Shown one piece after another: positions 1-64,000 of a stretch of DNA of 64,000 bases. The DNA lies in the IMG/VR virus record IMGVR_UViG_3300045988_131075, positions 29,671-93,670 of that record. One strand, written 5' to 3'. The first letter of the stretch is position 1; every line of letters starts with the position of its first letter. Source of the DNA: a virus. Made by a program: the position numbers and the translations under genes. Under the pieces are notes generated by a model that did not search any database, had not been told where the DNA came from, and saw only the letters and a list, made by a program, of their open reading frames with translations.

Positions 1-572
1 ATGGAGTAAAGATTCCTAAATCTAGTTTCTTATCTATGGAAAAAGATTTAGAAATTGTTGTAAATCATTTATGTAAAAATGAAAGATTAAAACGTTTATT
101 GTATTATACTACCCCAGATGCTATAGACAAGCCAAATCTGAGTGATGAACAAATGATTTAGTTATTTAAGAAAAATATTAAATTAATTCCTAAATTATAT
201 GTTGATGGTAGTGTTTTAAATTATGTCGTAATTAGTTTTGATAATTTTATTCCTAATGATACAAATCCAGAATTTAGGGATAACATTATTGAATTCGATA
301 TAGTTTGTCATTATGATTAGTGGCATTTAAAAGATTATTAGTTGCGTCCTTATCGCATTGCTGCGGAAATAGATAGTATGATAGATAAAACACATTTAAC
401 AGGTATTGGAAAATTGGAATTTCTTGGTGGTAACCAAATTATTTTAACTGATGAATATGCTGGTTTATGTCTTATGTATACTGCTATTCATGGTGAAGAA
501 GATAAGAAATTTATGCCAAATCCCAATGATGAAGAAAGATTTTTAAAAGACTTTTAGGATAGAACTAAATAA
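1..572 (+). CDS. 3' part of a structural-module protein of unknown function; the gene starts upstream of the window. About 5 in-frame TAG codons; stop is TAA at 570-572.
   Basis: Frame stays open from the window edge. All standard-code interruptions are TAG. The track ORF 342..557 is a fragment of this gene. Confidence 0.5.
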
Positions 573-1297
573 TGGATTTACGTTTAGGCTTAATGTGCGG
601 AATTGATTTACCAATACCAGAACTTTAGGCTACAATTCATTAGCCAAAGATAAAAGAGATTGCTTTTGTCGGTGAAAAAGATTTCTTCCTTGGGGTTCAA
701 TGTCTTTGTATTGATAAAAATATAATAGCCAATTAGGGCGAAAGTCTTTTAGTTAATACGAATAATTTTTAGATATTTATGACAATGATAAAAGAAAAAG
801 AGATGGCTGAAAAAAAAGATTCAGTCATAAATGTTTTTTCTCTTATATTTCCAAAATATAAAACTTTATTTACTCCAAGATCTATCATTTTACAAAGTGA
901 TACTTAGATAATGATTGATGATTCAAATTTTGAAATTCTTTAGGAATATTTAAAGGAAATATTTTGTTTTAAATCTTCTATGTCTCAAGAGCTGGGTTTT
1001 AACCCTGCTAATGGTACTGCTAAAAAAATTGCAGATAAATTAATGAGAGGTAGATAGAGAGTTGCTGAATTAAATGGTTCAGCTAATGTTAGTATATTTA
1101 GTTAGTATCTTTCAATGCTTACTGTAGGTTTAGATTCAATGTCTCTACAGGATTTAATGGATTTAACAATGTTCCAACTTTTTGACCTTGTTGAAAGATA
1201 TTAGCTTTATATTAATTGGGATATTGATATTCGGTCAAGGCTAGCGGGTGGAAAACCTGATGGCAAACCGGAGAACTGGATGAAAAATATCCATTAA
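572..1297 (+). CDS. Hypothetical structural-module protein, about 241 aa, with about 10 in-frame TAG codons.
   Basis: The ATG overlaps the upstream TAA (taATGg). The frame is continuous to TAA at 1295-1297, broken only by TAG. Confidence 0.5.
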
Positions 1298-1321
1298 ATT
1301 TATTAAGGAGGAAAATAACCT

Positions 1322-2320
1322 ATGAAATTTGGTGTTCGCGAAATTTGCGATGTCGTTTTAAAGGCTAAGGCAACTCAGAAGGTTGGTAATAAAATCTTTT
1401 ATAGAAATGAGCCAGTTATTTATTTCGACACTTTAAAAACTTCCAGCATGGAAGGCGCTGCTACCACTGTATATGCACAGGGAGGACGCGGTAATGCTCG
1501 TTTAGTAGCCTGGGAAGGTGAGCGTACTGTTACCTTTACAATGGAAGATGCTCTTATTTCTCCAGAAGGTTTCATGATTCTTTCTGGTGCTGGTCTTGTT
1601 GAAGCAAGTGCTACTAGTACTATTAAACAGCACGTTACTGAAACTGTAGATAAATCACAAATTGATAGTACAACTACTGAAGGACAAGTTACTATTCGTG
1701 TTTCTAAAAAGCCCTATCTTCCAACAGACGAACAAGAGAATTTTGCTTATGTTATGTTTGTCAAAGATGGCGAAATTATCACTGAGCCTTTTATTCCTGT
1801 CCATGAGGAGTTAACTGCTAAGAAAGATACTAACGGTAATGAATATTTTGAATTAACTCTTAAAACTCCACATGATGATTATATTGCTGGTACAGGTAAT
1901 TATACTTTTAATGAAAAGAATGGCCTTCCAGCGGCTGCAGCATATGATAGTGCTATTGTTGATTATTATACTGAAAAGGCTAGGGGCGCTCAACAGATTG
2001 AGATTACTGCTGATAAATTCGGTGGTAACTATTATCTTGAAGCCTCTACTTTATTCCGTGATCAAAATGGTGTTGATATGCCTGCTGAATTTATTATTCC
2101 TAACTGCAAGATTCAGTCTAACTTCACTTTCACAATGGCTTCTTCTGGTGATCCTTCTACTTTCACCTTTACTATGGATGCTTTCCCTGATTATACTCGT
2201 TTTGACCACAGTAAGAAAGTTCTTGCCGCAATTCAAATTATTGAGGAAGGCGGAGCTAGTGACCTTCATCGTACTATGACTGCTCACGATGAGGCTCACA
2301 ATGCTTCTTTCACTGACTGA
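1322..2320 (+). CDS. Major structural protein, 332 aa: major tail (tube) protein candidate, with major capsid protein as the alternative. It has no TAG and a higher-GC codon usage, so it is likely highly expressed.
   Basis: RBS AAGGAGG sits 8 nt upstream of the ATG. The ORF is uninterrupted and followed by a strong terminator. It lies upstream of the chaperone-like gene and the tape measure gene. The beta-rich composition and C-terminal Ig-like tail are an impression only. Confidence 0.5.
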   Translation: MKFGVREICDVVLKAKATQKVGNKIFYRNEPVIYFDTLKTSSMEGAATTVYAQGGRGNARLVAWEGERTVTFTMEDALISPEGFMILSGAGLVEASATSTIKQHVTETVDKSQIDSTTTEGQVTIRVSKKPYLPTDEQENFAYVMFVKDGEIITEPFIPVHEELTAKKDTNGNEYFELTLKTPHDDYIAGTGNYTFNEKNGLPAAAAYDSAIVDYYTEKARGAQQIEITADKFGGNYYLEASTLFRDQNGVDMPAEFIIPNCKIQSNFTFTMASSGDPSTFTFTMDAFPDYTRFDHSKKVLAAIQIIEEGGASDLHRTMTAHDEAHNASFTD

Positions 2321-2558: not shown

Positions 2559-3665
2559 ATGAATTCGTTATAGAGAAGTATTAAGGCCAGTCCAAGAGAA
2601 ATGAATACAGAAGATTTTTTAAAGAAATCTTATGAATTTACAAAAAGAAGTATGAGTTAGAAATTAAGAGCAAGAGATACTTCTGAAAAACAAGCTAAAA
2701 AATTAGAAGAATTCTTTCAAAGTATTCAAAATAGATAGCTTGGAAATCCTATCGAAAATATCCAAATGAGTGAATTATTAGATGCTTTAGAATAGATTAA
2801 TCCTTAGCTCTTTAATTCAATGAAATATTTATTTACTACGCCAGATAACTATGGAGATTCTAATGATGCGCATGGTAAATATTTTGAAGGGGTTATTGCG
2901 GAAGCGGTTGCCACTGCGGAGAATTATTTTGCTGGTAATAAAACTATGACTATAAGTGGAAGTAGTAAAAAGGCTGGAACCGCATCTGTTAACCTTATAG
3001 ATTTAGCAAAGGATTTAGATGAAGATACAAAAAATCTAATGAATGATATTTATTAGAAAACTGCCCAAGAAATGAAAAAAGATAGTGAAGCTGCATCTTC
3101 TACAATAAAAGGAGTTTCTGGCAAAGCGGATATTATAGGAATTTAGTAGAATTATACAATATAGAAAACTAGCCATTTAGAATTAGATGAAGAAATTTAT
3201 GATGCTTTATTAAATGCTACTTTTACTGCGAAAAATTATATGTCTAACACTTAGATTGAATTAGGATCTACTAATCCTTTTCGTGTTTTTATGACTATGA
3301 TTCCTCTTGGAGGAGCTACAAGTAAAATTTAGAGATATTACCGTATGTTGGCTTGTAAATAGAAGCACTTTCCTGATAAGCATCCTGATGCACCAAAGTA
3401 TTTTTATAGATTAAGAGCTATTTATGAATTAACTGGTGGAAAATCTAATTATACTAATACTGTATTAAATAAGCTAATAGGTGGAAATTATACTAAATTT
3501 TTAGTTTTAAATTTATAGGGACATATAAGAGTTATTCCTACTTAGAGTGTCATAAAAGAGCTTATTGACAATATTGATGATGATTAGTTTAATAAAGATA
3601 TAGATTGGCAAAAGGCTTTATATGGACGTATTAGGATTAATCAAAATAAATTTAGTGAAATTTAA
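2559..3665 (+). CDS. Hypothetical tail-module protein, 368 aa, with about 17 in-frame TAG codons.
   Basis: A single frame runs from ATG 2559 to TAA 3663-3665. All internal stops are TAG. Confidence 0.5.
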
Positions 3666-3723: not shown

Positions 3724-4257
3724 ATGGCTAAAATTTCATATACTAAATTAGGAATTGGTAAGGAAGAATTGAATAAAGTTCAGACTGTAGAATATAATGA
3801 TCAAACCATTGAAGTAAAGCAATATCTTCCAGTTGCAGAAAAGAGTGAATTAATTACTCGTGTATTAAATAATTCTGTAGATGAAGATAATGGATATTAT
3901 AATCTTTTAAAGATGGATATGCATCTTGCACTTGAGATTGTTTATGCTTATAGCAATATTAATTTTACAGAAAAGCAAAAAGAGGATTCAGCGAAGCTTT
4001 ATGATATGCTCAATGCTTCAAAGGTGCTTAATCTTATTATTGGTCTTATTCCAGAAGGAGAATTTTATTATTTAAATAAGACTGTCCATGAAATGGCTAA
4101 TAATATTGTGGCTTATCGCAATTCCGCGATGGGAATTATGGAGCGCATTACTACTGATTATAGTAACTTAAATTTTGATGCTAGCACGATTCAAAAAGAA
4201 CTTGCCGATCCTAATAATATGACTTTATTGAAAGATATTCTCACTAAATTGGGCTAA
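3724..4257 (+). CDS. Putative tail assembly chaperone-like protein, 177 aa.
   Basis: RBS AAAGGAGG sits 6 nt upstream of the ATG. It lies immediately upstream of the tape measure gene. The protein is acidic and helical. Confidence 0.3.
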   Translation: MAKISYTKLGIGKEELNKVQTVEYNDQTIEVKQYLPVAEKSELITRVLNNSVDEDNGYYNLLKMDMHLALEIVYAYSNINFTEKQKEDSAKLYDMLNASKVLNLIIGLIPEGEFYYLNKTVHEMANNIVAYRNSAMGIMERITTDYSNLNFDASTIQKELADPNNMTLLKDILTKLG

Positions 4258-4387: not shown

Positions 4388-7300
4388 ATGGCTAAACAAT
4401 TAAATAGTTATCAAGTTAATTTACAATTTAATGCAAATACTGCATAGGCGAAAACGCAATTGCAAGATTTGCAAACAACTCTTGATGCTATTATAAAAGA
4501 GTCTGTAGCGGGGGTTTCTAAAGGAGACTTTAATTTAACTAAAAGATTAAATGAAGCGCAGATAGCGGCATCAAAACTACAAACCATTTTAGCTCAAACT
4601 ACTAATGTAAAAACGGGAAAAATGGATTTAACAAGATTTTCTCAATCTTTAAAATAGAGTAATTTAGATTTAAAAAAGATATAGAATAGTTTACTTGAAC
4701 TTGGACCTTCTGGGCAAAAAGCTTTTATGTCTTTAGCTCAATCTATTGTTGAAGCTGATGTTCCATTAAAAAGAACAAATTTATTAGTTTCTGAATTATG
4801 GACAACTTTAAAGAATACAGCTCGTTGGTAGATTTCTTCTAGTGCATTGCATGCATTTATGGGTACTATTCAATCTGCTTATGGATATGCCAAAGATTTA
4901 AATGAATCTTTAAATGATATTCGTATTGTTACTGGACACAATATTGAATATATGGATAAATTTGCTGAAAGAGCAAATAAAGCGGCGAAAGCATTAAACG
5001 CTACTACATTAGATTACACTAATGCTTCTTTAATTTACTATCAATAGGGTTTAAGTGATGAAGAAGTAGAAAAAAGAACAGATATTACTGTTAAAATGGC
5101 TAATGTAATTAAACAAAATGCTGATATTGTTTCTGATCAATTGACTGCAATTTGGAATAATTTCTATGATGGCTCCGATTCTCTAGAACATTATGCTGAT
5201 GCGATGGTGCGCTTAGGTGCAGATACCGCATCTAGCTCTGATGAAATTGCTGGCGGTCTTGAAAAATTTGCGGCAGTTGCTAATACAATTGGTTTAAGCT
5301 TTGATAATGCAGCAGCTGCGTTGGCCACTATTACTGCTACGACTCGTCAAAGTGAAGATGTAGTAGGTACTTCTTTAAAGACTATTTTTGCTCGTATTCA
5401 AGGTTTAAAATTAGGTGAAACCTTAGAAGATGGCACTACTTTAAATCAATATTCACAAGCTCTTGCGGCTGTTGGAGTTAATATTAAAGACTCTAATGGA
5501 CAATTAAAAGATATGGATATCATTCTTGATGAATTGGGCCACAAATGGTCAACAATTAGTAAAGACCAATAGGTAGCTTTAGCTCAACAAGTAGCTGGTA
5601 TTCGCCAATATAACCAATTAATTGCTTTAATGGATAATTTTGATTTTTATCAAGAAAATATTCAAAGAGCAAAAGATGCAGATGGTTCTTTACAAGAACA
5701 AGCTGATATTTATGCTGAAAGCTGGGAAGCTGCTCGTGATCGTGTGCGTGCAGCAGCCGAAAGCATTTATGATGATTTGATTAATGATAAATTCTTTATT
5801 AGTTTGTCTGATGCGATAGCAGGAGCTTTAGATGCTATCGATAAATTGATTAGTTCTATAGGAGGTCTTCCGGGAGTAATTGCAGCTCTTGGAATGATAT
5901 TTACTAAAGTGTTTAAAGTTCAAATGGGCGAGGGCGTTAATAATTTAGTTTTTGGCCTTTAGTCTTTAGTTGGACTTACAAAAAAGAGTGCAGTTTCTCT
6001 TAAACAAGAAGCTTATAATCGAGCTTCTAATATGGCTTTTGATACTGGTACTGAAGTTGGAGATAGATAGGGAGAATCATTAAAATAGACTTTAGACTTA
6101 AAGAAAAGAATATATGATATATCTGAAAATATTACAAAAGAGGAAAGACAATAGCTTGAAGGGTTAATTGAAATTAATCGAGCTTATAATGAACAGGCTA
6201 TAAAAGCGGCTCAAAAAAAAGATTAGGCTAGTGAGAATCTTCAAAATACTCGCATGGATCTTAGAGCGCGCATAAGAAGAAATTCTGCCACTGGAAAAGT
6301 AGAGAAAAATTTAAATACTTTTGGAAATGTTCAATAGCAAATGGGTGGAATTATTAAAACTGGTTTGCGAGGAACTAAAGCTTTAGATGGACTTAATAAA
6401 GCATTAAAAGAAGGAAGTCCATTAGGAAAAGCTTTTGAGGGCAGAATAAATACAATTCAGCAGGCTTTAATTAAAGTAGATAGATCTGAAGCAGCTAAAT
6501 CTATTGGAAATTTTGTTGAAGAATTAAAAAACGGAACTATAACAGTAGATTAGTTCTTGAAAAAAGTAAATAATGTTGTCACTAAAGAAAATTTAATGGC
6601 TGATGCTACATCCAAAGCGGCAACTATTCTTGAGGATGACTTTGGCAAAAAAGTTAAAATTAACGGCGAGGAATGTCAAAAGCTTGCTGAAGATATGACT
6701 GAAGTTATTGTAACAACAGATAAATTAAAAACTACTAATAAGCAAGTTGCTGGGTCTTATGAAAAAATAAAAGCTGCAATTGAAAATTATAAAAATGCTA
6801 CTGGAGATTTAGGGTAGAAATTAATTTCTATGGTTAATGGTTTTTCTTCATTGGCTATGGGATTGGCTTCCATTAAGAGTATTTTTGATACTTTATCTGA
6901 TGAAGATATGTCATTCTTTGATAAACTTTTATCAGTTAGTATGTCTTTAGGCATGGGTATTTCTATGACCGTTTCTGGCTTATCTACTATGGCTAAAGCC
7001 TATAAAGAATTGGCAGAAGCTAAAACTTTAGATAATATAAAGACTTCGATTAATACTGCTATTACAGAGATTAATAATCTGGTAAAAGCTTAGGCGGCCG
7101 CCAGAACAGGAACTCAAACAGTAGCTACAGATAGATAGGCATTGGCTGAAAGCAAACTTACAAAAAATATAATATTGTAGAATGCTGCCTATTTAGTCCG
7201 TAATACACAGATGTCTGCAACAGCAGCTTTTGGATTAAGTTTAGCTGGTACTATATTAGCTGTAGTTGCAGCTGCAGCGGCTTTAGTGCTTATATCTAAA

Positions 7301-10300
7301 GCAGTTTATAATTCTATTCATAAAGAAGAAATAGCGGCTGAAGCAGCAGCCAAAGCGGCTTCAGATCTTGGTAATGCTTATGATGAGTGTCGTGAAAAGT
7401 ATCAGCAAATGATTGATGAGTTTAATGAATACAAAGATGCCATAGATGCTTTGGATAATTTAACTAAAGGAACTCAAGAATATCGTGATGCTTTAGACGA
7501 GGCTAATCAAAAGGCTTTAGAATTAATTCAAAATAATCCTGATAAATTTAATAAAGATGATTATTATTGGGATGATAATAAATTAGTTATTAAAGATACA
7601 GCTATGTCTCGTGTAGCTGAAGCTAGTAGACAAGAGACAGCGGATTTATAGGCTGCTTCTGCTATGGCCAATGCCAATAATGCTCAGGCATAGGCAAATT
7701 TGCAGAAAGAAAATCTTACTGATATTGTTAAGAGTTCTTTGCGTAACACAGGTAATGTAAATAAATCTATTGATGCTTATTTAAATAGCGATAGAGTTGC
7801 TGTTGATAAAGAAGACTTAAAAGATATTCTTAATCTTGATAATGGTATAGACGATAAGGCTTTAGTTAATGTCCTTTGGCGCAATATTGATGCTTTAAAT
7901 GAGTTAAGAAATACTATGGATGGGGTTGAAACCTCTTTTGATCTTGCTAGTAAAACCGCAGCAAGAGCGCAATGGTCTGGTTCTGGTAAAGAAAATACTA
8001 AAGCTGGAAAAATGGCGCTTGAAGGTGGCGGAAGATTATATAATAATCTTTATGCTGAGGGAGAAAATACTGTTAAAGGTTATTCATTAGACACTAATTG
8101 GGCTGCCTATGAAAAAATGAATAATTTGAATTCTCTAAAAGGATATAAACGTTCTATTAAAAGCGATAAAGTTGAATACAGTTATTATGATGAGAATGGT
8201 GAAAAGATAACTTAGGAAATCAGTAAAGAAGCTATTCAAATCGCGGCCGCAACCCAATATGCTAATGATAGAATTGGAGAAGCTTTAGATAGCTTATATC
8301 AAAATATTGCTAAAGCTAATAAAGATGGCCTTGATAGTGTAGGGAAATATTTATCAACAGAAAATTTTGATAATATGACAAAAGGCGAGCTTGAACAATT
8401 TTAGGGATTAACTGATGATTAGTTAAAAGAATACGGAATTGATAAACAAGCTATTGAAGAAGCTAAGAAAGTTGTATTTGATGAAATGGATGGTCTTAAT
8501 GAAGCTATGAGCGATTAGATCACTGTTGGAGTGAATAAGACTTTAAAAGAAAATATTTAGAATTTTGGTTCTGAAGGTAAAGATGCCTATATTAGTGCTA
8601 TCAATCAAATTGGTGAATCTATTGATTGGAATGCTTTGTCTCCAGAATCTTAGGCTGAAGCTTGGAATAAAATTTCTAATATTAATTGGTTTGATTTTGA
8701 TGCTCAACGTCAAGCTGAAACTCTAATTAAAGAAATGGGCGGAGATGTTTCTGTTCTTGGAGATAATTGGGATAAAGCTTTTAGCTAGATGCGCAAAGCT
8801 GGAGATGTCGTTCCAGTATTAACTGATATCAAAGAACGCCTTGATAAAATAGATAATATTACTAAAGATATGAAAATCGGTAAGATTTTAGAAAAAGAAG
8901 ATTATGATACTTTAGTAAATTATAATAGTGAATTGGCAAGATATTTTGCTATTTTATCTGATGGGTCTGCTGTTTTTGTAGGTGATCCTCTTGATTTCCA
9001 GTAGATGGTTAAATCCACTAAGTAGGATGAATTAAGTAGAACTATAAATGGATACCAAAATATTATTGATTAGTATTATGCGGGGGCTGAAGAACTTAAA
9101 AAAGCGGGTGGATTAGATTAGATTCGAGAAGTTGGGTCTGAAAATGTTAATAATCAGTTAGCGTTTTTAAAGACTTAGAACTATGATGAAACATAGATTT
9201 CTGATTGGATTGGTAAGCTTGCTAATTCTAGAGGATAGGATATTGACACTTTAAAAGCTATTGCTGAAGCAGTTAATGAAGTTGGTAATTCTTTCTTATC
9301 TAGCAAAGATAGTATAGAACAATATACAGCAAGTAGTCAATAGGCTATGAATGAATTGGCAATGACCGCCGAAACTGCTCAAGAAGCAGAAGAAATGCTT
9401 AAAAATGGTAGTATCAATGAAATAGCTTATAATATAAGTGCTATATAGCGTATGTCTAGTGAAAAATGGGAAAATTTAGATTCATCTGAAGTAAATAAAT
9501 ATGCAGATTCTTTAATGAAGACAGCTAAAAGTTCTAAATTATTAAGTGATGAACTTGTAAATAATAAAGAGGCTGCTGAAGATGTAGCTCTTTACACTAT
9601 GAAAATGAATAATGGTGTAGAGAAATTGAAAAATGGCTTTAGCGGATGGGCTGATGTATTAACGAAATCTGATTCTGCTTCACAAGAATATTATGATGCA
9701 ATGGTTGATATTAAAGATGCCATGTCTGATGTGCTTGGGGTTTCAGAAGAATTTTTAACTGATGAGTTTATTACTAAAAATTTAACTGATATAGGCAAGG
9801 CTGCAGAAGGCGATGCTGATGCTATAGATCGTTTGGCCGCTGCGGCAAGTAAAGATATTCTTTTAAATGTTGATTTTGTTTAGGATAATAAACAATTACA
9901 AGATGTTTTATTATCAATGCATGATAAATTAGCGGCGGAAATTCCAGATATAAAAATTGGTACAACTTTTGAAGGTCAAGATGATTTAGTTAGATAGGCT
10001 CAAAACATTATCGGCACAGCAAAAATGACTGCTGAATAGGCAAATGCTTATTTTAGTGCCATGGGTTTTGAAACTAAATTTAAAGTTGAACCTCAAAAGA
10101 TGGAATAGGAAACCCCGATAGTACGTTCTAGATAGACAATAGTTGGAGCAGGATTTGATGAACACGGAGCTCCCTATTGGGAAACAACAACAGAAACTTG
10201 GAATGATGGATATAGCATTCAAACAGGTTATGTCGATGCTATTGCTATGGCGACCTCTCCTGATGGAACAAAAACTCCGATTATTGAAAGTATGACTAGT

Positions 10301-13300
10301 AAGCCTACTGGAATTATGAATAATAGTTCAAAAGCTAATAGAGGTACTACAAGCTCAAGTAAAGGCGGAGGAGGAAATAAAAATAAACCAACCAAGGGAG
10401 ATTTAACTAAAAAAAGCGATGTTGTTGATCGTTATAAAGAAATTACTGATAGCATCAATGATACCACTCGTGCTTTAGATAAGGCTAATAAATCGGCAGA
10501 TAGACTTTGGGGTAAAGCCCATCTTGATGCGATGGCTAAAAGTAATAAATTAACTTTAAAAGAAATTGATTTATTAAAACAAAAGCAAAAAGAGGCTTAG
10601 GCTTATCTAAAGACAGATAAAGTTACTTTATAGCAAGCTGCGAAAGAAGCTGGAATTACTTTCACATTTGATGAAGATGGTGACATTTCTAATTATACTG
10701 ATTAGATGACTAAACTTTATAATTAGCTCATAGCTGCTTAGAATAAAGCAAATTCTTTTTCTACAAAAGATGCTCAAGACGCTTATAAAGAAGCAACTTT
10801 AGATCCGATTCAAGAGAAAATCAATAAGTTGAAAGATGCTATTAAGCAATATGAAGATACAAGAGATTTAGTCGAAGAATTAACTGATGATATCCAAGAT
10901 AAAATAAACGAATGGCAAGATAAAAATTATCAAATGCTTACTTATGAAGTTGAAATAAAGGTTCAATTAGATGAAAATGATACTAAAAAATTAGAATATT
11001 ATTTTGATAAATTAAGTGATAATATTTATAAAGCCGCTGAAGCTCTTGGATATTTACAAGGCCAATTTGATCCAGTAATTAGTCAATTAGGAACTTACGA
11101 AAATTTCTATGGCCAGTTAAATAATGCTTATTCTAATGGAGAAATCTCTCAAGAAAATTATATTGAAGGCTTACAAGATGTATATGATAATACATTAGAT
11201 AATTTAAATGCTTTGTAGGATTTAGATAAAGAAATGCTTGAATATTATGGTAATACTATAGATTTGGCAAATGATGAATTGTCTAAATATACAGACCATA
11301 TGGAACATTTAACCAATGTATTAGACCATTATCGTTCTATTATTACTTTATTAGGCAAAGATAAAGATTATGATAAAGTTTTATCAGTTTTAAATGGAAC
11401 TGCTTAGACTAAGAAAAATAATTTTGATACTTCTAAGCAATGGTATGAAAGCTTGAAACGTGAACGCGATGCGGCGGCCGCAGCTTTAGCCAGTTCAACT
11501 GATGAGGCTGAACGTGAAGTGCTTCAAAAGAATTATGATGCTATATTAGCCGCATTCGATGAAGCGGAAGAGGATATGCTTTCTAAAGCTGAAGAATATG
11601 GCGAAGCATTAAAAGAAATTCTTACTACAAAGATGGAGCAAGCTGCGGATGAAATGAATAAGCAATTAAGCACTACTAAAGTAAGTATTAATGGTAATAA
11701 CTTTAATATTTCTGGTTGGGATGCTTTAAATGATGCTTTGGATAGAATGTCTTCTTATCAAGATGAATATTTAACAAAAACTAATTAGATTTATGAAATG
11801 AATAAACTACTTAATAATGTTAATTAGGCTATTGATAAGACAAATAATCAAGCAGCTAAAAATAGATACCAGCAATTTACTAAAGAAATTGAGTAGTTAA
11901 GAGATAAAGATAAATTAAGTCAATTAGAATTAGAAATTGCTTAGGCTAAATATAAAGTACTTGAAGCGCAAATTGCGTTAGAAGAAGCTCAAAACGCAAA
12001 GTCTACAGTTAGACTGCAACGTGATAATGAGGGCAATTTTGGTTATGTGTATACCGCAGACCAAGAGAAAGTAAATGATGCGCAATAGGCTTTGGCGGAC
12101 GCGGAAAATGATTTATATAACATTCGCCTTGATGCGACAAATAAATATGGTCAACAAAAACTTCAATATGAGAAAGAGTTGGCTGACAAACTTGCGGAAC
12201 TCGATTAGAAAGCTGCGGAAGATGCCGTTTACCGCGAGACCGCTTATCAGCAAGAACGCGCTTTAGTAATTCAACAATATACTGATTTAATTACTACTGC
12301 TGGAAATCTTTATGCAAAAGCTCAAGAAGAGGATAGTAGAGTTGTTCAAGACGCTTGGGTAAATTCTTTTGATATTATCAAAGATAATAGTAATAGTTGG
12401 AAAGATACTATTACTGAAAACACTAATATTATCAATGATACATTTAAAGAATGGCAAGATAGCATGGATGAAATTAGTAAAATTGTTGGTGATGATTTAA
12501 AAGATACTCAATAGAAAGTTAAAGATGTTACTGATGAAAGTAATAAACTTTATCAAGAAGTATCTAATAGAGTTATTCCTACTCTTGAAAGCGAGTTAAG
12601 TTCTGTCCGTAGCGCTACTGAAGCTTGGGCACAACATCGTCAGCAATTACTTGATACTATTAGAGCTTATGAAGAGCTTTTGAACGCTATTCAAGCGACA
12701 TTGCGCGCTTAGAGTGGATTTGGTAGCGATAGTAGTAATTCTTCAACAAGAGTTGATTGGTCTGAAAAAATGGGTCAAGTTGAATATGGTTCTGATAAAT
12801 ATAATGAATATTATCAAAATCGTGAAGATGTTATTAAAGGAGGATATGACATTAAAACAGCTACAAATGCTCGTGTTAATGCTTTTTATCAAAAAGGATT
12901 GACATTACCAATTACCCGCAATGGAAAAACTTATACTCATTTTACTGATATTCCTGATAGCATTTGGAAACAATTAGTTGGGTTTAGAAGTGGCGGTTAT
13001 ACTGGCACTTGGAATGATGGTGGAAAATTAGCGTTCTTACATTAGAAAGAATTAGTTCTTAATGCTGATGACACGGAAAATATGTTAGCTTCTATCCAAT
13101 TAGTTAGATAGATCGCGAAACAATTAGATTTCAATAGTCAACAAATTTCTACTCTTTCTTCTTCTGGATTTACTGTTAGTTCTCAAGATGGAACATTAGA
13201 ATAGAATGTTAGAATTGAAGCTAATTTCCCGAACGCAACTGATAGATACGAAATTCAAGAAGCATTTAATACATTAGTTAATGTAGCTTCTCAGTATGCC

Positions 13301-13312
13301 AATAGAAAATAA
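4388..13312 (+). CDS. Tape measure protein, about 2974 aa. This is a single ORF once TAG is read as sense, with many tens of in-frame TAG codons.
   Basis: RBS GAAAGGAG precedes the ATG at 4388. All 15 long track ORFs from 4460 to 12770 share one frame, and the gaps between them contain only TAG. The stop is TAA at 13310-13312. The protein is Ala/Gln-rich and helical, with no enzymatic motif recognised. Confidence 0.7.
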
Positions 13313-43191: not shown

Positions 43192-43272
43192 TGTTATATA
43201 ATCTCCTATCTATTTCATAGAAAAATTATATCACAAATTTTCTTTTTTGTCAAGTTTTAAATTAATAATGTT

Positions 43273-51427: not shown

Positions 51428-52089
51428 TCTAACTCCAACCCTCCTTCCAAATTCATTATTTTATCAATAAAATAATCTGAAGTAGTATTTGTTTTTATTT
51501 TAAAAGCATTCCATTCTTCCATTGTCATATCTCTTTTTGAAAAATTTTCATAAACTGTTAAAAATTGATAATTTTCTAATTTTTCTTCTCCACCTTTGGA
51601 GATTGGAATTATATGATCTAAGCTAGGTTTGGCCCAATCATAAAATGTTTTATTTTTATTCTTATTATTATTCCAAAATTGGTATACTTTATTAAATTGT
51701 TTATCTTGCCAAAAATATCTTATAATAGTTTTATATTCTTCAATATGATTATTATAATAAAGCAAATCTCTATGAGTAATTCTTAATGCTTTATGTAAAA
51801 ATAAATATTTTTCAAAATCTTCTTTAAATTCATTAAGAAAATCTTCTTCAACTTCTATATAAGTTGTTGCTTGGAAAGCTTTTTTCTTTCTATCACAACC
51901 ACAACTAGTTTGGGTATAATTCCCATTCCCTGTTAAATATGAAGTAGGCACTTTACAATAATTGCCACATTCACATTTACACAGCCAATAATTTCCATGG
52001 GTTTGTGTCGGACGTTCTTCTATTGAGCAAAGACGTATAACTTTTAATTTTCCAATTTGTTTATCAGTTAAGTCATATTTTGTAGCCAT
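51424..52089 (-). CDS. Free-standing HNH homing-type endonuclease, 221 aa.
   Basis: It has an N-terminal Cys-rich zinc finger and the C-terminal motif PSLDHIIPISKGG...N...N. Its own RBS is AAAGGAG. Confidence 0.6.
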   Translation of the reverse strand: MATKYDLTDKQIGKLKVIRLCSIEERPTQTHGNYWLCKCECGNYCKVPTSYLTGNGNYTQTSCGCDRKKKAFQATTYIEVEEDFLNEFKEDFEKYLFLHKALRITHRDLLYYNNHIEEYKTIIRYFWQDKQFNKVYQFWNNNKNKNKTFYDWAKPSLDHIIPISKGGEEKLENYQFLTVYENFSKRDMTMEEWNAFKIKTNTTSDYFIDKIMNLEGGLELE

Positions 52090-52455: not shown

Positions 52456-53655
52456 TTACTTCCTTATAATTACTAATTTATCACTGGCTCTAGTAGCCAT
52501 AGTATATAAATATTTTTTATGTTCTTCTCGATCAAAAGGATGATTTTCTTCAAATCCTAATACTTTTCCGTATTCACTACCTTGCGCTTTCCAACAGGTA
52601 ATAGCGTAAGCATAGGAGAAATCAAGTGGAGGATCGAGGCATTGTTTATTATTTCTTAATTGATAGCATTGGCTACCTGTAAGAGTCCCTTCACCGGTGA
52701 TAAGTTGTTTATAATCAATTGGAGTCCCACAAAATTTATCTCCATCGCTTAAAACAATTTGAGTAAACATATAAGTAATAGGAACTTCTGAAATATAATA
52801 AGGGACTCGAATGTCTTCAGTATAAAAATCTTCAATAGTTCCAACAGTGCCATTAGTTAAGACCCATACTCGATTCTCAGACATAAAATCCCAGTTATTA
52901 TGTAACCCAATAATTTTATCTCCAATTTGAGGGACATTAGGATCAAACCCTTTTCTTAATCGGACTACATTATTAATTTTAGTTCTCGTAGCATTTTTAG
53001 CACAAATAATCTAATCTGCCCAATCGTACATTTCAGGTATAACTTGACTTTTATCATATACTCTTACTTGTTTTCCTTCTGGACGATAAGAAATTAAAGA
53101 TTTGCCTTCTCTAATCCACATTGAAAAACGAATAATTTCACTATCTTGCGCTTGACGCATAATTTCATCGAGAAAAATATGTGGTTTATCTAATACACGA
53201 TTATTTTCATTAGGATCTACAGGAGGTAATTGACCTGGATCGCCGGCCGCAATAATATAAATACCATGGGTTAGCATTAAGTCCCATAATTTTTTAGGAA
53301 GCATTGATACTTCATCGACAACAATTACTTTATATTGGGCCAATTCACTATTGTCTTTTGGAAAAAATTTAAAAGTTCCATTAGCCATCATTTTAGCTTT
53401 ATATAAAAGTTTATGCGCGGTTGTCGCATTCGGGCAACCCTTTTGTTGAAGCACAGTCGCAGCTTTACCTGTAAATGCTACATAACAAACTTCTTCTTCT
53501 GGATCAACATCAAGAGCAGAAATAATAAATTTAATCAAAGTGCTCTTTCCGCTTCCCGCGTATCCCGCTATACAAGTCCAACGCTCATGGGCGTAATAGC
53601 GCTCAACCGCAATTTTCAATCCTTCTTCTTGTTTACGAGTTAATTCCATTTTCAC
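52456..53655 (-). CDS. Dda/RecD-like superfamily 1 DNA helicase, about 399 aa, with one TAG at 52993-52995.
   Basis: It has the Walker A motif GYAGSGKST and the C-terminal motifs ITCWKAQGSEYGKV and YTMATRA. The two track ORFs are joined by a single TAG. Confidence 0.6.
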
Positions 53656-55023: not shown

Positions 55024-55863
55024 TTAATTAGTAAAATAATTATAAGCAGTGGTCGCATTCTTTTGTCTTTGATTTAAAGAACTTGATCCACAACGCTCAT
55101 AACATTTTGCAAAAGCTTTAGCAACTTCTTTTTCATCATTTAAATTTAAAAAAGAATTAAAATTAAATCCTCTTTTATATGAAGAACCAAAAGTATTAAA
55201 TTCATATCCAATAGTATTTATTAAGAATTCGCATTGTGTATCTAAATCAGAATACCAAACACTTGAATATCCTTTACTCCATTGACAAATTCCATAATAA
55301 TATTTATTAGAAGCAGTTGGCTGTAAAGATAAAGTATTACCGCCACATTCTGCCATCATATTACCCAAAATACCGGCGCAAACCGCGTCATTCCATCCTT
55401 GGTCTTTCATATAAAGCCAAATTTCTGTTGCTACTGGATAAGTAGATGATTTATCATTCCATTGAGAATTAATTTTATCTAAACGATTCTGATAAATTTC
55501 CAAATATCCATTAGCAGTTTCATATTCTTTTTTAGCAAATTCAATAATAGGATGATTTTCATCATACCCTAATGCTCTCGTTGCTTCGGCTAAGTCATGA
55601 GCACTATTTACAATCTCTTGATACTCTTGGATTAGAGATTTGAGCTCTTTACGGTTAACTGTATCATTAATTTCTCTATCCATAGGTTCCATATCAATAG
55701 TTTCTTCTGGTAAAAAATTATATACAGTTGATGATTCAGAAGGGATGTAAGCTTCCGAAAAAGTAGTGATTTCGCTATAATTTAAAGCAAGAGCTGATGT
55801 TTGTAAAATAAAAATTAATACAAAACAAATAATACTTCCTGCTAAAATCTTATATCTTTTCAT
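55024..55863 (-). CDS. Secreted peptidoglycan hydrolase of the phage tail-type lysozyme family, 279 aa. It is an endolysin candidate.
   Basis: It has an N-terminal signal peptide (MKRYKILAGSIICFVLIFILQTSALA) and the motif AGILGNMMAECGG...GICQW. Confidence 0.45.
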   Translation of the reverse strand: MKRYKILAGSIICFVLIFILQTSALALNYSEITTFSEAYIPSESSTVYNFLPEETIDMEPMDREINDTVNRKELKSLIQEYQEIVNSAHDLAEATRALGYDENHPIIEFAKKEYETANGYLEIYQNRLDKINSQWNDKSSTYPVATEIWLYMKDQGWNDAVCAGILGNMMAECGGNTLSLQPTASNKYYYGICQWSKGYSSVWYSDLDTQCEFLINTIGYEFNTFGSSYKRGFNFNSFLNLNDEKEVAKAFAKCYERCGSSSLNQRQKNATTAYNYFTN

Positions 55864-56036
55864 AAATGATTTCCTCCTAATAGGTTTTTTAAGTCTATTA
55901 GTCGTAGTGTCAATTATTAAAAATAATAAGCAGCCCTATCTACAATTTCGTAATCTTCTATAATAATCTAAGGACTAATGTTATTATTCCATATATTTCG
56001 TTCGCATTTACCAACGATATTAATTGTCACATAACC

Positions 56037-57665
56037 CTATTCAGAATACAATTTCTCGTATTCCTCCTCGGACGACTTAAACTTGATTAAACTGATGCCA
56101 TCTGGCATAGTTATCTTCAAGGTAGGATTTTTATCTTTTGACATTAAAGTTAAGTTATTTGATGCAACTTTTATTCCTTCAACGGCAATAGATGCTTCTT
56201 CTACCCCTTGGCCCCAAAGTGGTTTAAGTTGAGCGATATCAATAATATCTTTTCCAACTAAATCATTAGTGTGATAAATAAAATCAACACTATAAATTGG
56301 GGTGAAATCAAAATCTTGTAAAGCAGAATTCGCATATTCAATAAATTTATTAAAATTATTATCAATAATACCAAATCCAAAAGCATTAGGATGCCCTTCC
56401 GCATACATAATTAGATTTGATTTTTGACAAAATTCTCTAAAGTCTTTAAGCGCGGATTTGTCGTATCCTCTGCCGGAGCCTTCCCAACAAATTTGTTGAG
56501 TTTCTTCATCTATTGTTTTATTAAGAATTAAAACAGGACGTTGATATTTGCTCATTAATTGATTGGCCATTAATCCAGTCAAATTTTTGTCAGCAGCAAA
56601 TCCATCTAACTTAATTCCTAAGATTTTATTACTTAAAAGATTTTGATTTGCGATTATCTATTCAATTTTTTCCAAGCTAGTGTCTCTGATTTTAGTTTGC
56701 CTATTCTTGATATTAGTACAATTACGACAAGCTTGTTCTACTCTTGTTTCTGCTTGACCTTTACATCCACGTTTTGTTGAAGGGACAAGTTCGTATCCCT
56801 TAAAATCAAGCATCGACTCGAATAGCATGAGCTTTTCTTCTTGCGTCCCAACACGAGTAGTTGCATTAACTAAAGGAGCAATATAGAAAGCTACTCCAAT
56901 AGGCGTAATCTCATTATTAAAATGAAACTAATCTCTATTGATTATGCCTCTGAAGTAAGGATTGGTGATTTGTTGTAAGCCTTTATTAATTAAATGTTTT
57001 GTTTCAAAATCACGCATATCCATCATGTCGGCCACCATTCCAAGAGCAACTAAATCCAATATATGATCCGCATACTGAACATTCATAAGTTCATCAATAT
57101 AACAACAAAACTTATAAACCATTCCTACGCCAGATAAAGATTTGGTTGGATAATCACATAATTGGTTGTTAATAATACAAGCATACTATGATATTTTATC
57201 AGCTTCATGGTGGTCTATTACCAACACGTCAATACCATTTTTATATAAATATTCGTGTTCTAAATAATCATTTGATGAAGAATCTGGAGCAATTACTAAT
57301 TTAATATCTTTATCAATACTATCTGGTATAATTCCGTGTTGTTTTCCTGCATGGACACGATAAAAAATATTGTTTTGCACAAACGCAGGAAAAAGACAGT
57401 ATAAGTAATTCATGAGTGCGGCCGCCGAAGTATAGCCATCACAATCACTATCTACCTATATAAGAACTTTGTCATTTTGTGCAATATGTTTGACGAGCAT
57501 TTTTGCACCATTTTCTATTCTATCAATAGTTGCTGGTTCTATAATGTCGTCATCAGTGGTATTAAGATAATGAGGAATATCTTGTAATTTAATTCCTCTA
57601 TTGGTTAGCACCTGTTCGACCGCTGAATACTGCGGGATGCGAGGAGCTTTTAGTTGATAGTCCAT
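56037..57665 (-). CDS. recJ: RecJ-like DHH-family ssDNA exonuclease, about 542 aa, with 4 TAG codons.
   Basis: It has DHH motifs (DSDCDGYTSAA, LVIDHHEADK) and a DHHA1 motif (GHPNAFGFG). Four track ORFs are joined in one frame by TAG codons. Confidence 0.6.
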
Positions 57666-59625: not shown

Positions 59626-61158
59626 TTAAAAAGCTGACTCTTCTTCAAGAGTAATTTTTATATCATCAATAGGAACAAGTTCATAAGCATATGTAGTACA
59701 AAACATAGGAATAATTCTACAAGTTCCTAAATCTGCTTTACACCATAAAATAACTCCTTTATACCTACCACGTCTATTTTTATAAACAGACATTTTAATA
59801 GTTGGAGTATCAAATAATTTTGTGTTTAGTATTTTTTCTAATGAAATTAAGTCATCATCTTGAACATTTAAAAGAATTGATCCATAATCTACTTTATCTG
59901 CGATAGATTTTGCTCCACGCAAAAGATTCTGGTCAGGAGTTTTAGAATCAACATAATCACCATTTAACTGTGTTGCTGACATAATAAAAACACCATATTG
60001 ATTACAGATATCTTTTAATTTGTTAGATAGCATAAAAAGTATGTTATCTTCACGAAGTTTTACTCCACCACTACGACGAGTAATTTCTTCAAGAATTTTC
60101 ATGCTTGTATGAATATAGTCGTGAAATATATATTTTACATCGTGGTCTCGGATGCCTTTTTTGATTTCATTTTCAACATCCTGCAATGAAAAATCAGGTA
60201 ATTCACGAATATACAATGGACTATCTTTAAGAATTTTCGCAGCTTCTATTACTCGTTCTTTTTCATTTCCTTGATATTCATTATAAATAATATGTTCTTC
60301 ATTCACATTAGAAAGAAAAGCAAGCATCATTGTTTGAATTTCATTTTTATCTTGCTCTGTAGTTATATACAATACTGGTTCTTGGATTCCATTTTTAATC
60401 CAACTTCCAAAAGTATCATCATATATTTTATTACAAGCAATATAGCACGAATCCGCAATCATAGAACGAGTTTTACCTACTCCTGTGGCCGCGGAACGCA
60501 AATAAAACTTTTTAAGTCTTGCACCACGAGTAACTGTATTAATTAATGGCCCATATAGAGGACTTCCTGCTATTGGATGTTGCTCTAAGTCATCAAGCAA
60601 TTCAAAAATTCCATCACCTGCTTGAACCGCAACTCCTTCAACGTCATTTACATACTCATATTTAATTTGTTCTATGCGGTCATCAATTAATTGTGCGATA
60701 TGCTCTAATGAAGAATTATCAAGATTATCTTCTTGTAATTGTTTTTTTTCAGTATCTAAAATATTATCAGGATCATAAATAAAAGAAACATCAATGCCAT
60801 ATCTGTCATAAGCACGAAGTAGAGACATTTTTTTTAAACGACCATAATAATAATCAAATGACAAAGGTTTCGCATTTTCAGAAACTTTTAATAACCATTC
60901 TTCGCCTTTATTAACTTTAAATGTGGCTTCATATTTAGGTCGAGAAGAAAGAAAATCACTAATATTTTCTAAAGTAATTTTCTAAGCTCCTAATTCATGA
61001 ATTTTATATATTGCTCCAAAAACAATTCTATGAAATTCATCAGCAAAGTCTTCATCAGTTATTGTATATCTATCAGTAAAATCCAAAAGCTAAGGAGTAT
61101 TATATACGCACCCTATAACTTGTGTAATCGCTGTTGGGTCTACATATTTACTCGGCAT
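59626..61158 (-). CDS. dnaB: DnaB-like replicative helicase, about 510 aa, with 2 TAG codons.
   Basis: RBS GGAGG. It has a DnaB N-terminal domain and a RecA-like C-terminal domain with AATGVGKT. Confidence 0.6.
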
Positions 61159-61801: not shown

Positions 61802-61816
61802 TAAATTATATTTTAT

Positions 61817-62812
61817 TTACTTACTTTCCATTTGAGGAAGAAGATCATCTTTAATTTCACCAACAATTAAAGATACAAATTCTGCCTGTTCAGGAGTGGC
61901 GTCAGAAATTTTCTTGCCTTTACCCAAATATTTATCAATAATTTGAGTGATACGAGGACCAAAGAATCCAGGATTCTTATTCATCATATCTCCAGCAAGA
62001 TTTTGGAATTCAGCCATAAGTGCTTCATAATCATAAGTAGGAGCTTCAGGGGCAACGACCATCTTTTCATCAGTGACAAATTTACCACCATTGTCAGCTG
62101 CTTCCTTATCAATAGCCTCATGGATAGCATTAATAAGACTATCATAATTCATAGGAATTTCACTCTCGATATACTTAAAACGACCACCACAGTCAATAAG
62201 GTCATTACCAGAACGAAGAGTTAGGACAGACATTTGACCTGCCGCCTTTTGATGAGCATATCCATAAACATCAGCCATACCAGTGATAATAGTGCGAGTG
62301 GATTGAGAAAGATTTGGTCTTACTGCCATAACCTCAGTACCATCAGGGCGAGTCACAGTTTGTTCTTTTTCATGTCCGATAAAGAAAACAGCATATCCAA
62401 GACGAGTTAAACCTCTAAAGACTTCATTAAATTCATCTTTAAACTTAGACCAGCCCTTACCATAACCAAGGTCTCCAAGAGATTCAATCTGATTTTGATT
62501 ACAGATATATTTCTCACAATATTTAGCGGCTTCATCAATAGTATCTACAATAATAGCATTATACATTGCCTTTACTTCTGGACGCTTCAAATCACGATAA
62601 ACTTGCTTCATTTCTGCCCAAGAAGTAATGTCCGCGGCCATAACACCAGGAAGGCAGTTATAGCCTTGCTCAAAAGCTAAAAGCAAAGAATTCGGCATTT
62701 GAGTCGCCAAAGTAGTCTTGCCTGTCTTGGGCTTGCCATAAATAAAAGTAATATAACCAGAAAGATCTTTACTTACCTTATGAGGTTGAATTTTAGTTAA
62801 ATCAATAGCCAT
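61817..62812 (-). CDS. Sak4-like (AAA_24) recombination ATPase, 331 aa, with no TAG and higher-GC codon usage.
   Basis: It has a GKPKTGKTT P-loop. Confidence 0.55.
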   Translation of the reverse strand: MAIDLTKIQPHKVSKDLSGYITFIYGKPKTGKTTLATQMPNSLLLAFEQGYNCLPGVMAADITSWAEMKQVYRDLKRPEVKAMYNAIIVDTIDEAAKYCEKYICNQNQIESLGDLGYGKGWSKFKDEFNEVFRGLTRLGYAVFFIGHEKEQTVTRPDGTEVMAVRPNLSQSTRTIITGMADVYGYAHQKAAGQMSVLTLRSGNDLIDCGGRFKYIESEIPMNYDSLINAIHEAIDKEAADNGGKFVTDEKMVVAPEAPTYDYEALMAEFQNLAGDMMNKNPGFFGPRITQIIDKYLGKGKKISDATPEQAEFVSLIVGEIKDDLLPQMESK

Positions 62813-62959
62813 TATGTTATTTCTCCTTATTTGTTTTAATTATTATCTCTTTAAGTATTTCTTCTAAATTTAGTATATTACAAAAATCATCATATAAATT
62901 AACTTTAGCGCGATGACCTCTTATTGGGAGGTCATCGCTATTTAATGGCTAATTCATGA

Positions 62960-63907
62960 TTAGAATTTAAAACCTTCTGTAGCAGTGGATGCAACAGTAG
63001 TAGCAGTAGTGGCATTCTGCTTAGAAGCTTTATATTCATCTTGGCGCTGCTTCAAAGTAGCAAGATAAGTCTCACGTGCGGCCATAGCTTCAGTAAGTTC
63101 TTTCGCAGTGATAGAACTTTCATCATCCCAAACATAAGGCTCCTTAGCGCCACCGGTAATAACAAAATCCTTACGAGTGCTCTGAACTTCACGAACATTA
63201 TCGTCGCCAAATGCAGACTCTTCACGAATCTCACGCTTAATTACTTCAGATACCTGACGACCCCAAAGCTTTGTGAATACAGGCTCAGAAGGAGAAGCTC
63301 CAAGACCCTCATAATAAGCCATGGCTCCAGGATTAGTAGCTGTAAACTCAACAGGAAGTAAAGACTTGCGGAAATCAAAAATTGCTCCCTTAACAATTAC
63401 CTTTTCAGGAATATTATGCTCTTCATCAGCATCAACATGAGTTACATTAGTGATAATCATATCACACTTAAAAGTATTGCGCTGCTTTTCATCATCAATA
63501 AGAGTGGTAGTAGTATGAACAAATCCGCCCTCATTGCGCTTAGCGCTTACAAGCTCTTCCTTGCCGTTACGATCAGAATAAAATTCATTAAGACCAATCG
63601 CGGAATCGACACGAAGCTTAGCAGCTTTATCTTCTCCATCAGCCATATAATTACCAATTGTACCATCAATAATATTCTGAAGAATACTATATGTAGCATT
63701 AGGAGTGCCCTTAGTAGTAGTTTGAGTTACATAAGTAAAGTGAACCTGGACGATATTAGTAAGAGCATTATCAGTAGCAATACTAATAGTACCAGAAATA
63801 AAAGGAGTGCCGGGGTTCTTAGAATTTGGTCCGGTTACCTTATTTTCCAAAGCATGTTCGTACAAGATACCTTCAATATGAGTAGCATTTTCCATTACTT
63901 TCTTCAT
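62960..63907 (-). CDS. Putative ssDNA-binding or recombination-associated protein, 315 aa, with no TAG.
   Basis: It has a gene-2.5-like C-terminal aromatic tail, is adjacent to Sak4, and shares the same atypical codon usage. Homology was not recognised with certainty. Confidence 0.3.
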   Translation of the reverse strand: MKKVMENATHIEGILYEHALENKVTGPNSKNPGTPFISGTISIATDNALTNIVQVHFTYVTQTTTKGTPNATYSILQNIIDGTIGNYMADGEDKAAKLRVDSAIGLNEFYSDRNGKEELVSAKRNEGGFVHTTTTLIDDEKQRNTFKCDMIITNVTHVDADEEHNIPEKVIVKGAIFDFRKSLLPVEFTATNPGAMAYYEGLGASPSEPVFTKLWGRQVSEVIKREIREESAFGDDNVREVQSTRKDFVITGGAKEPYVWDDESSITAKELTEAMAARETYLATLKQRQDEYKASKQNATTATTVASTATEGFKF

Positions 63908-64000
63908 AAATAAATTTCTCCTTAATTAAATAAATTCAATAAATTAATATTTTTTCCTTTTTCTGTTAAAGTATAAATAATTGGATCTTGACTAACTTTT

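Follow-up and report, generated by a model that had tools for sequence, protein, structure and literature searches.

We analysed a stretch of 64,000 nucleotides (nt) of viral DNA, positions 29,671 to 93,670 of the IMG/VR record IMGVR_UViG_3300045988_131075 (hereafter the window), whose genes run through the amber codon TAG. The window appears to derive from a large siphovirus with a genome of roughly 196 kilobases (kb) from a gut-type metagenome, which would read UAG as glutamine by means of a phage tRNA(CUA) and keep UAA and UGA as stops. We assign this reading a probability of about 0.93. Reassignment of TAG to glutamine is already known in gut phages and in the related phAss-1 group; the large siphovirus lineage described here is new.

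TAG codons are read as sense across the window

The window has a G+C content of 30%. Under the standard code it contains 76 open reading frames (ORFs) of at least 100 amino acids (aa), which together cover 43.8 kb, the longest being 1328 aa. When TAG is read as sense, as in translation table 15, 67 ORFs above the same threshold cover 69.3 kb, and the longest reach 2981, 2568, 1328, 1113 and 982 aa. The ORFs of 2981, 2568, 1113, 982 and 774 codons emerge once TAG alone is treated as sense, while reading TGA instead of TAG as sense brings a small gain, to 50.1 kb. An earlier reading of this DNA made from the letters alone (the sequence-only reading) had proposed that genes stay open through TAG and terminate at TAA or TGA, and the re-called genes bear this out. 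The 48 called ORFs contain 222 in-frame TAGs in total, and all 48 end in TAA or TGA; among the 46 ORFs tallied as late or early, the TAA or TGA ends number 34 + 12. The sequence-only reading had also taken TGA to be a genuine stop. This agrees with the gene of the tail tube or major structural protein (phrog_2729; 1322-2320, plus strand), which closes with TGATGA, and with the alignments of close relatives, which hold neither TAA nor TGA in frame.

Relatives for these comparisons came from IMG/VR, where a search with the tube protein returned 313 related stretches, the contigs reaching lengths of about 200 kb. Further loci were reached through three other anchors, namely ORF 62960-63907, the tail protein at 19809 and DNA polymerase III alpha. 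Dozens of contigs come from the IMG metagenome 3300045988. No contig was identical to the window; several belonged to the same species, with 94-98% nucleotide identity over 16-37 kb.

Homology persists on both flanks of the TAGs, in profile matches as well as in alignments to relatives. In the N-terminal part of NrdD, the Pfam match extends over residues 137-437, with the TAG at residue 238 inside it. In the activase NrdG (43231-43725, minus strand), the Fer4_12 match covers residues 15-154 and encloses the gene's one TAG, at residue 151 (43273-43275). A conserved protein (572-1297, plus strand) matches phrog_4051 over profile positions 4-245 of 247, a span that takes in all nine of its TAGs. 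The tape measure protein (4388-13312, plus strand; 2974 aa, 58 TAGs) matches five tape-measure PHROGs at E<1e-13 and nine at E<=1e-5, the best being phrog_4211 (E=1.4e-50), and its relatives can be aligned across the TAGs. In a tail or baseplate protein of 1092 aa (13473-16751, plus strand), all 24 TAGs could be aligned to relatives.

These observations bear directly on whether the TAGs might be true stops, in genes that are fragmented, in pseudogenes, in a faulty assembly or at sites of rare readthrough. The many short ORFs seen under the standard code are what such an explanation would lead one to expect. It does not accommodate ORFs as long as 2981 codons that together hold 222 TAGs, and neither TAA nor TGA, in frame: the off-frame density of TAA plus TGA is about 100 per 1000 codons, so a frame of 2981 codons is not attributable to chance. 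Nor does it accommodate the homology on both sides of each TAG, or the fact that TAG sites are kept, or exchanged with CAA or CAG, over dozens of independent assemblies. In our judgement these data already refute it, and we consider the probability that remains for true stops negligible.

Glutamine at TAG positions

Reading TAG as sense leaves the inserted residue to be assigned. The window proteins were written with X at each TAG and aligned to the ORFs of relatives, and the residues facing each TAG were counted; for most TAG positions, the standard-code homologues were supplied by the IMG/VR relatives. In relatives without any in-frame TAG, glutamine made up 25% of the residues facing TAG against a background of 5.7%, an enrichment of about 4.5-fold. 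Where these TAG-free relatives had a consensus of at least 60% at a TAG position, that consensus was glutamine in 11 of 16 columns.

A Codetta-like, position-weighted likelihood test, with substitution frequencies measured on the same alignments, ranked glutamine first in every data set. At the ends of the window (113 positions) glutamine scored -283 and lysine, the second, -337; in the middle (118 positions) the values were -326 for glutamine and -367 for glutamate. Restricted to TAG-free relatives, the test gave -185 for glutamine and -200 for lysine over 71 positions, and -186 and -198 over 67. The lead over the next residue across these data sets was 12-54 log-likelihood units, and glutamine again came first when five other recoded relatives were used as queries.

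Several TAGs fall in columns where glutamine is invariant or nearly so. In the virion structural protein (phrog_6123; 36-572, plus strand; four TAGs), the TAG at 318-320 is residue 95, where all 31 TAG-free relatives have glutamine. In the phrog_4051 protein, residues 24, 67, 124 and 162 face glutamine in 30-33 of 32-33 TAG-free relatives (32 of 32 at residue 24 and 33 of 33 at residue 124). The NrdG column is glutamine in 19 of 19 relatives. The single TAG of the Dda/RecD-like helicase (52456-53649, minus strand; TAG at 53011-53013) faces glutamine in 25 relatives and TAG in one. In the DnaB-like helicase (59626-61158, minus strand; two TAGs), residue 23 is glutamine in 28 of 31 relatives. 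The RecJ-like exonuclease (55917-57665, minus strand; six TAGs) shows glutamine in 22 relatives and TAG in three at residue 566, and glutamine in 12 and TAG in eight at residue 70.

Two motifs had been singled out in the sequence-only reading, and both hold up in the alignments. In the GIY-YIG homing endonuclease (44834-45394, minus strand; two TAGs), the TAG at 45341-45343 occupies the glutamine position of YIG[Q]S within KVYIG[TAG]S, where relatives have glutamine in 17 cases, TAG in four and other residues in seven. In NrdD, the context SLC[TAG]FGG (46141-46143, minus strand) faces glutamine in 18 relatives and TAG in seven. Among solved NrdD structures, this site is glutamine (Q-Y-G-G) in T4 NrdD (1h78) and in 9d3x, and methionine (M-H-G-G) in 8p23; for the Dda helicase, the alignment to PDB entries ended short of the TAG position. 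Taken from these alignments, the assignment of TAG to glutamine with TAA and TGA kept as stops, as in table 15, is supported.

A phage tRNA(CUA) as candidate decoder

The sequence-only reading had suggested a search beyond the window for a tRNA-Sup(CUA), and such a gene is present in relatives of the same species. A search pattern built on the suppressors of phAss-1 matched 119 IMG/VR stretches, five of them from same-species relatives (contigs 110853, 118370, 126669, 126226 and 119030), whose identity to the window is 94-98% across 16-35 kb. Each of the five has a tRNA cluster with one tRNA(CUA) of 90 nt, and the copies are identical but for 1 nt (9078-9167 on the minus strand of the stretch L149; also in L171, L145, L216 and L227 of the same species). 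From the geometry of the contigs, the cluster lies about 50 kb past the window's right-hand end, on the early-gene strand. As a positive control, ARAGORN recovered both annotated tRNA-Sup-CTA genes of phAss-1.

The tRNA(CUA) scores 56 bits against the Rfam tRNA model, with a D arm of the normal class-I type of 4 base pairs (bp) and an ordinary T arm. Its acceptor end in the window species has U1.U72, G2-C71 and G73, and two cousins (L138 and L192) have U1-A72 in an acceptor of the form UGGGG...CCCCA-G, as is typical of tRNA-Gln. A weak or U1-A72 first pair, G2-C71 and G73 are identity elements for glutaminyl-tRNA synthetase (GlnRS) and for the GatCAB amidotransferase. The acceptor features support a predicted tRNA of the glutamine type. 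Classical amber suppressors charged by GlnRS include E. coli supE, a tRNA-Gln(CUA), and su+7, a tRNA-Trp(CUA) that inserts glutamine. The phage tRNA shows the same combination as both, with anticodon CUA, a weak pair at 1:72, G2-C71 and G73, and its anticodon arm, GGUCU-CUA-AAACC, is similar to the E. coli tRNA-Trp arm found in su+7. Unlike the classical suppressors, it has an extra hairpin that carries a glutamine anticodon loop.

We considered whether TAG, although sense, might specify another residue, such as serine, leucine, tyrosine, tryptophan, glutamate, lysine or pyrrolysine, and regard this as very unlikely. Lysine and glutamate are the runners-up in the likelihood tests, and the long variable region of the tRNA is class-II-like and might suggest serine, leucine or tyrosine. 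A minority of phage tRNA-Sup genes has also been predicted to be of tryptophan, isoleucine or tyrosine isotype in a preprint on theta ribozymes (Kienbeck et al., bioRxiv 10.1101/2023.06.13.544163). These points are outweighed by the lead of glutamine in likelihood, by the TAGs in invariant glutamine columns (NrdG, phrog_4051, and NrdD with glutamine or TAG throughout), and by the tRNA itself, with its class-I D arm, its acceptor end and a variable-arm loop that reads UUG. ARAGORN labelled the gene tRNA-Pyl, a label given by the anticodon alone on a molecule whose D and T arms are ordinary, and no pyl genes were seen in the parts of the genome examined. A second ARAGORN call in L149, tRNA-SeC(tca), was rejected: it has a poor acceptor stem, lies inside an ORF of 676 aa and does not recur in L171.

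Several results weigh against decoding of TAG as glutamine by a tRNA of this phage. ARAGORN and Rfam found no tRNA in the window, which gave no other RNA family at gathering scores either, and relatives have none in about 10 kb on either side of it. No gene for release factor 2 (RF2), GlnRS or an anti-RF1 protein was found with Pfam and PHROGs in about 110 of the roughly 196 kb, although the sequence-only reading had named such genes as possible companions of the recoding; the ORFs that adjoin the tRNA cluster likewise have no release-factor or synthetase domains. The variable arm of the tRNA, at 20-26 nt, is unusually long. Finally, CAG becomes TAG by one C-to-T transition, and variable columns alone would be compatible with another inserted residue; because TAG is one transition away from CAG, the weight of the assignment lies on the invariant glutamine columns alone.

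For glutamine decoding, we propose that the phage-encoded tRNA(CUA), which shares its strand with the early replication genes, is the decoder. It would presumably be charged with glutamine by host enzymes, and would have to outcompete host release factor 1. We infer three points here, namely that this exact genome carries the tRNA(CUA), that the tRNA is charged with glutamine and that timing acts as a regulatory switch; the first follows from the absence of a tRNA in the window together with its presence in same-species relatives.

The tRNA(CUA) gene does not encode CCA. The 55 nt directly 3' of it (L149 9023-9077, minus strand) match the HDV-F-prausnitzii ribozyme at 26 bits (E=0.03), below the Rfam gathering score, and probably form a 'theta' ribozyme for processing of the tRNA 3' end. 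Theta (minimal HDV-like) ribozymes have been described next to tRNA-Sup genes of phages (Kienbeck et al., bioRxiv 10.1101/2023.06.13.544163), and the arrangement here is like theirs in that an HDV-like match, in this case sub-threshold, directly follows a CCA-less tRNA(CUA).

A second anticodon-like arm in suppressor tRNAs

The long variable region of the tRNA(CUA) folds as a hairpin whose 7-nt loop resembles the anticodon loop of tRNA-Gln. In the window species, the loop is C-U-UUG-A-A (CUUUGAA) on a UUCC/GGAG stem; most other sequences have C-U-CUG-A-A. A wider scan of IMG/VR, in which the CUA anticodon loop and T arm were the sole fixed elements and which was filtered to a proper anticodon stem, yielded 60 unique tRNA-like sequences with CUA. 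In 31 of these 60, a 7-nt loop centred on CUG (27) or UUG (4) closes a variable-region hairpin whose stem has 3 bp or more. About 13 more have the same motif with a shorter stem or in another register, and several of the last 16 look like ordinary class-II suppressors of the serine, leucine or tyrosine type.

The stem of the second arm covaries. Its two inner pairs are always formed, as CG, GC, UA or AU, and a third pair, of four different types, is present in 24 of 34 sequences. Covariation scored 0.57 against 0.18 in shuffles, none of 500 of which reached 0.57, and slid registers scored at most 0.22. The spacing is symmetrical: the stop-anticodon arm begins 1 nt after the D arm, as a normal anticodon arm does, and the second arm ends 4-6 nt before the T arm, a normal variable-loop length.

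If the hairpin marks the assigned amino acid, opal suppressors with a long arm should show a tryptophan anticodon there, and this prediction held when set against tRNA(UCA) sequences. Among 33 unique tRNA(UCA), 14 have a hairpin of 5-7 bp with the loop (C/G)-U-CCA-A-A, and seven more show the following: CGUCCAAAA. Counted in a 2x2 table, the CUA tRNAs comprise 31 of glutamine type and one of tryptophan type, and the UCA tRNAs one and 14, respectively (Fisher p=6e-10).

Our preferred interpretation, to which we give somewhat less than an even chance, is that in suppressor tRNAs of this family and of many other recoded phages the second arm, with a loop of Y-U-CUG/UUG-A-N in tRNA(CUA) and U-CCA-AA in long-armed tRNA(UCA), copies the anticodon arm of the tRNA that serves the newly assigned amino acid. 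It would so supply an identity element that GlnRS (or a non-discriminating GluRS) or TrpRS requires and a stop anticodon does not have. Such an arm would allow near-complete charging, as needed where one gene contains 58 TAGs. Mimics of anticodons to which synthetases bind are known elsewhere, in mRNA operators, in a tRNA-like element of HIV-1 and in viral tRNA-like structures. Full-text searches turned up no description of a two-armed tRNA architecture, which is not proof of novelty. If confirmed, the second arm would explain how tRNAs with stop anticodons are charged efficiently by synthetases that read the anticodon, and would give the engineering of suppressor tRNAs a design principle taken from nature. 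An apparent mimic of the glutamate anticodon (CUC/UUC) in some CUA tRNAs was rejected; these sequences are really ordinary tRNA-Glu or tRNA-Gln with CTCTAAA in the D arm. The route that had been attached to this mimic, charging by a non-discriminating GluRS followed by GatCAB amidation, was withdrawn with it.

Uneven use of TAG in late and early genes

TAG is used unevenly across the window. Late genes contain 186 TAGs in 12,541 codons (14.8 per 1000), which amounts to 35% of their glutamine codons, and early genes 32 in 7,586 (4.2 per 1000), or 11% (Fisher p=5e-14 for the share among glutamine codons). The essential early genes for NrdD, Dda, RecJ and DnaB nevertheless have TAG inside. The claim that amber codons are sense throughout is thus accurate for the window as a whole, but has to be qualified by a strong bias towards late genes and by avoidance of TAG in the tube and capsid-module genes, in DNA polymerase III alpha (47437-51273, minus strand; 1278 aa, an early gene with no TAG), in the primase gene and in others.

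Two late genes of the window, the tube gene and the next but one, ORF 3724-4257, are free of TAG amid the window's TAG-richest neighbours. A late protein without assigned function (2559-3665, plus strand) is the most TAG-dense of the window, with 15 among its 368 codons. Across 47 TAG-recoded relatives, TAG accounts for 6 of 461 glutamine codons in the tube gene, and for 36-61% of those in four genes neighbouring it (p=2e-82 versus the tube gene); in ORF 3724-4257 the share across recoded relatives is 15%. Upstream of the window, the nearest contig has three capsid-module ORFs with no TAG (L002 3995-4912, 4930-6036 and 6123-6716), and its portal and connector genes have 3-10 TAGs each. The most strongly expressed virion genes may avoid TAG because decoding capacity is limiting, a view that the avoidance in the most abundant virion proteins (tube and capsid-module) would fit.

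With tRNA(CUA) as the decoder, full-length tape measure, tail, fibre, portal and connector proteins would be made only after the tRNA has accumulated. The early genes, with few or no TAGs, would be translatable beforehand if the timing works as a switch.

No such switch would be needed if the host itself reads TAG as glutamine and the phage simply matches it. Genes for release factors and synthetases were looked for in part of the genome, which leaves some room for this explanation; we nevertheless hold it to be extremely unlikely. Close relatives in the family use the standard code or TGA recoding, and the phage, judged from its same-species relatives, would carry its own tRNA(CUA). Depletion of TAG in early genes would serve no purpose in a recoded host, so its strength here counts against a host that already reads TAG as glutamine. 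For code 15 phages, Borges et al. predict Firmicutes or Bacteroidetes hosts with the standard code (bioRxiv 10.1101/2021.08.26.457843).

Three code states in one family

The code state of relatives was scored by counting in-frame stop codons within tblastn alignments to the window proteins. Many relatives have 40-90 in-frame TAGs per locus, and others have none (for example L015-L031, L037-L043, L058 and L080). A third group shows in-frame TGA and no TAG in the same genes (32 in L072, 22 in L076, 23 in L077 and 8 in L034), and the residue most often aligned to these TGAs is tryptophan, in 13 of 66 cases. The family therefore mixes standard-code, TAG-recoded and TGA-recoded members. At least 313 related contigs are present in IMG/VR; their TAG-recoded members need table 15 and some cousins table 4, and standard-code calling breaks up every structural gene in this lineage of about 196 kb. 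Three code states at close distance, together with a clean gradient of TAG use (absent in tube and capsid-module genes, low in early genes and high in the other late genes), make the family a good system for studying the timing and limits of a code switch.

One more distant relative, contig IMGVR_UViG_3300031555_003080 (stretches L192 and L120), has the long tRNA(CUA). Its replication region nevertheless has no in-frame TAG in 2898 aligned codons, where recoded relatives have 13-21.

Comparison with known recoded phages

Phages with code 15 (TAG to Gln) were reportedly found in gut microbiomes by Ivanova in 2014. Later work described a late-gene bias and suppressor tRNAs in code 15 phages, and large recoded clades that hold codes 11, 15 and 4 within one clade (bioRxiv 10.1101/2021.08.26.457843); in crAss-like phages, TAG recoding has been proven by proteomics (Peters et al., PMC9523058). 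The lineage of the window shares with the code 15 gut phages the TAG at glutamine positions, its use mostly in structural and lysis genes and variably in replication genes, a phage tRNA(CUA) (here in same-species relatives of the window), a mixture of codes 11, 15 and 4, large genomes and hosts that are apparently of Firmicutes type. It differs in belonging to neither the crAss-like nor the Lak phages and, unlike some code 15 clades, in showing no 'code-change module' of RF2 or synthetase genes in the parts examined.

The closest GenBank relative is phAss-1 (OQ749652), with a tube protein that shows 50.7% identity across 63% of its length. NCBI places phAss-1 in the 'Caudoviricetes code 15 clade' with annotated tRNA-Sup-CTA genes, and its description (Babkin et al. 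2023, PMC10607447), with a proposed genus Phassvirus, reports three suppressor tRNAs and the recoding of TAG to Gln. Both phages are siphoviruses whose tape measure protein has about 3000 aa, and both have NrdD and NrdG, DNA polymerase III alpha and TAG read as glutamine. phAss-1's long tRNA-Sup-CTA is homologous to the tRNA(CUA) described here, at 89.8% identity across 58 nt, and shares its extra hairpin. The genome of phAss-1 is smaller, at 136 kb against about 196 kb, and differs in gene order: its suppressor tRNAs adjoin nrdD, whereas those of the window species lie about 50 kb away. A megablast of 24 kb of the window against GenBank phages, phAss-1 included, gave no match. On the lack of a nucleotide match, the tube identity of 50.7% and the different gene order, the window phage falls outside the Phassvirus genus as judged from sequence comparison.

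Gene layout of the window

With TAA and TGA as the sole stops, the called genes form an orderly phage map. The plus strand from 1 to 39 kb carries the virion module, with structural proteins, tail tube, tape measure, tail proteins of 750-1100 aa, a fibre-like protein and a holin. Beyond the genes already discussed, this module encodes a tail protein of 959 aa (16952-19831; 10 TAGs, ending in TGA), a second of 768 aa (phrog_32343 / phrog_1887; 19809-22115; 8 TAGs), a tail-associated protein of 757 aa (22476-24749; 9 TAGs), a giant fibre-like protein of 2567 aa (27214-34917; 32 TAGs, ending in TGA) and the holin (phrog_13712; 38669-39079; 1 TAG), all on the plus strand.

The minus strand from 39 to 64 kb carries the replication and nucleotide module. 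Its first part encodes a response-regulator-like protein, a RuvC-like resolvase (41085-41528, minus strand; 3 TAGs, matching phrog_159 and phrog_827), a dUTPase, NrdG, NrdD and a guanylate kinase. The rest comprises DNA polymerase III alpha, the Dda-like helicase, a secreted lysozyme-domain protein, RecJ, a primase-like protein, DnaB and a Sak4-like annealing protein. The first of these genes (39123-39839) had been taken for a LytTR regulator, an identification that we do not retain: its sole Pfam match is Response_reg.

NrdD insertion and homing endonucleases

On NrdD, the earlier account needs a small correction, as nrdD is in two parts. An intron-like insertion of 850 nt (44700-45549, minus strand), which carries the GIY-YIG gene, separates exon 1 (45550-46854, minus strand; ATP-cone and NRDD profile positions 2-265) from exon 2 (43722-44699, minus strand; 1 TAG, Pfam NRDD profile positions 264-562). 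Relatives with insertion-free alleles, L249 among them, define the junction as ...ACAATGGGT / insertion ...CATG / TGTAGAACT, between the glycine and the cysteine of STMG-CRT. As with group I introns, the last nucleotide is U in the 5' exon and G in the insertion. Rfam made no group I intron call on the insertion, and its only match, to HOLDH, was insignificant (E=0.47). No ATG lies near the N-terminus of exon 1; its ORF starts with NLNIVEYSK..., homology to solved NrdD begins at residue 23, and the start is probably a TTG, GTG or ATT codon.

A further ORF of 221 aa (51424-52089, minus strand) adjoins DNA polymerase III alpha and has an HNH-like C-terminus. The segment 51430-52159 is missing in six of eight same-species contigs compared and present in 118370 and 145683. 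This ORF is probably a free-standing homing endonuclease. Elsewhere among the early genes, the product of 55024-55980 (minus strand) combines an N-terminal hydrophobic segment with a Phage_lysozyme2 domain, at a position remote from the holin gene.

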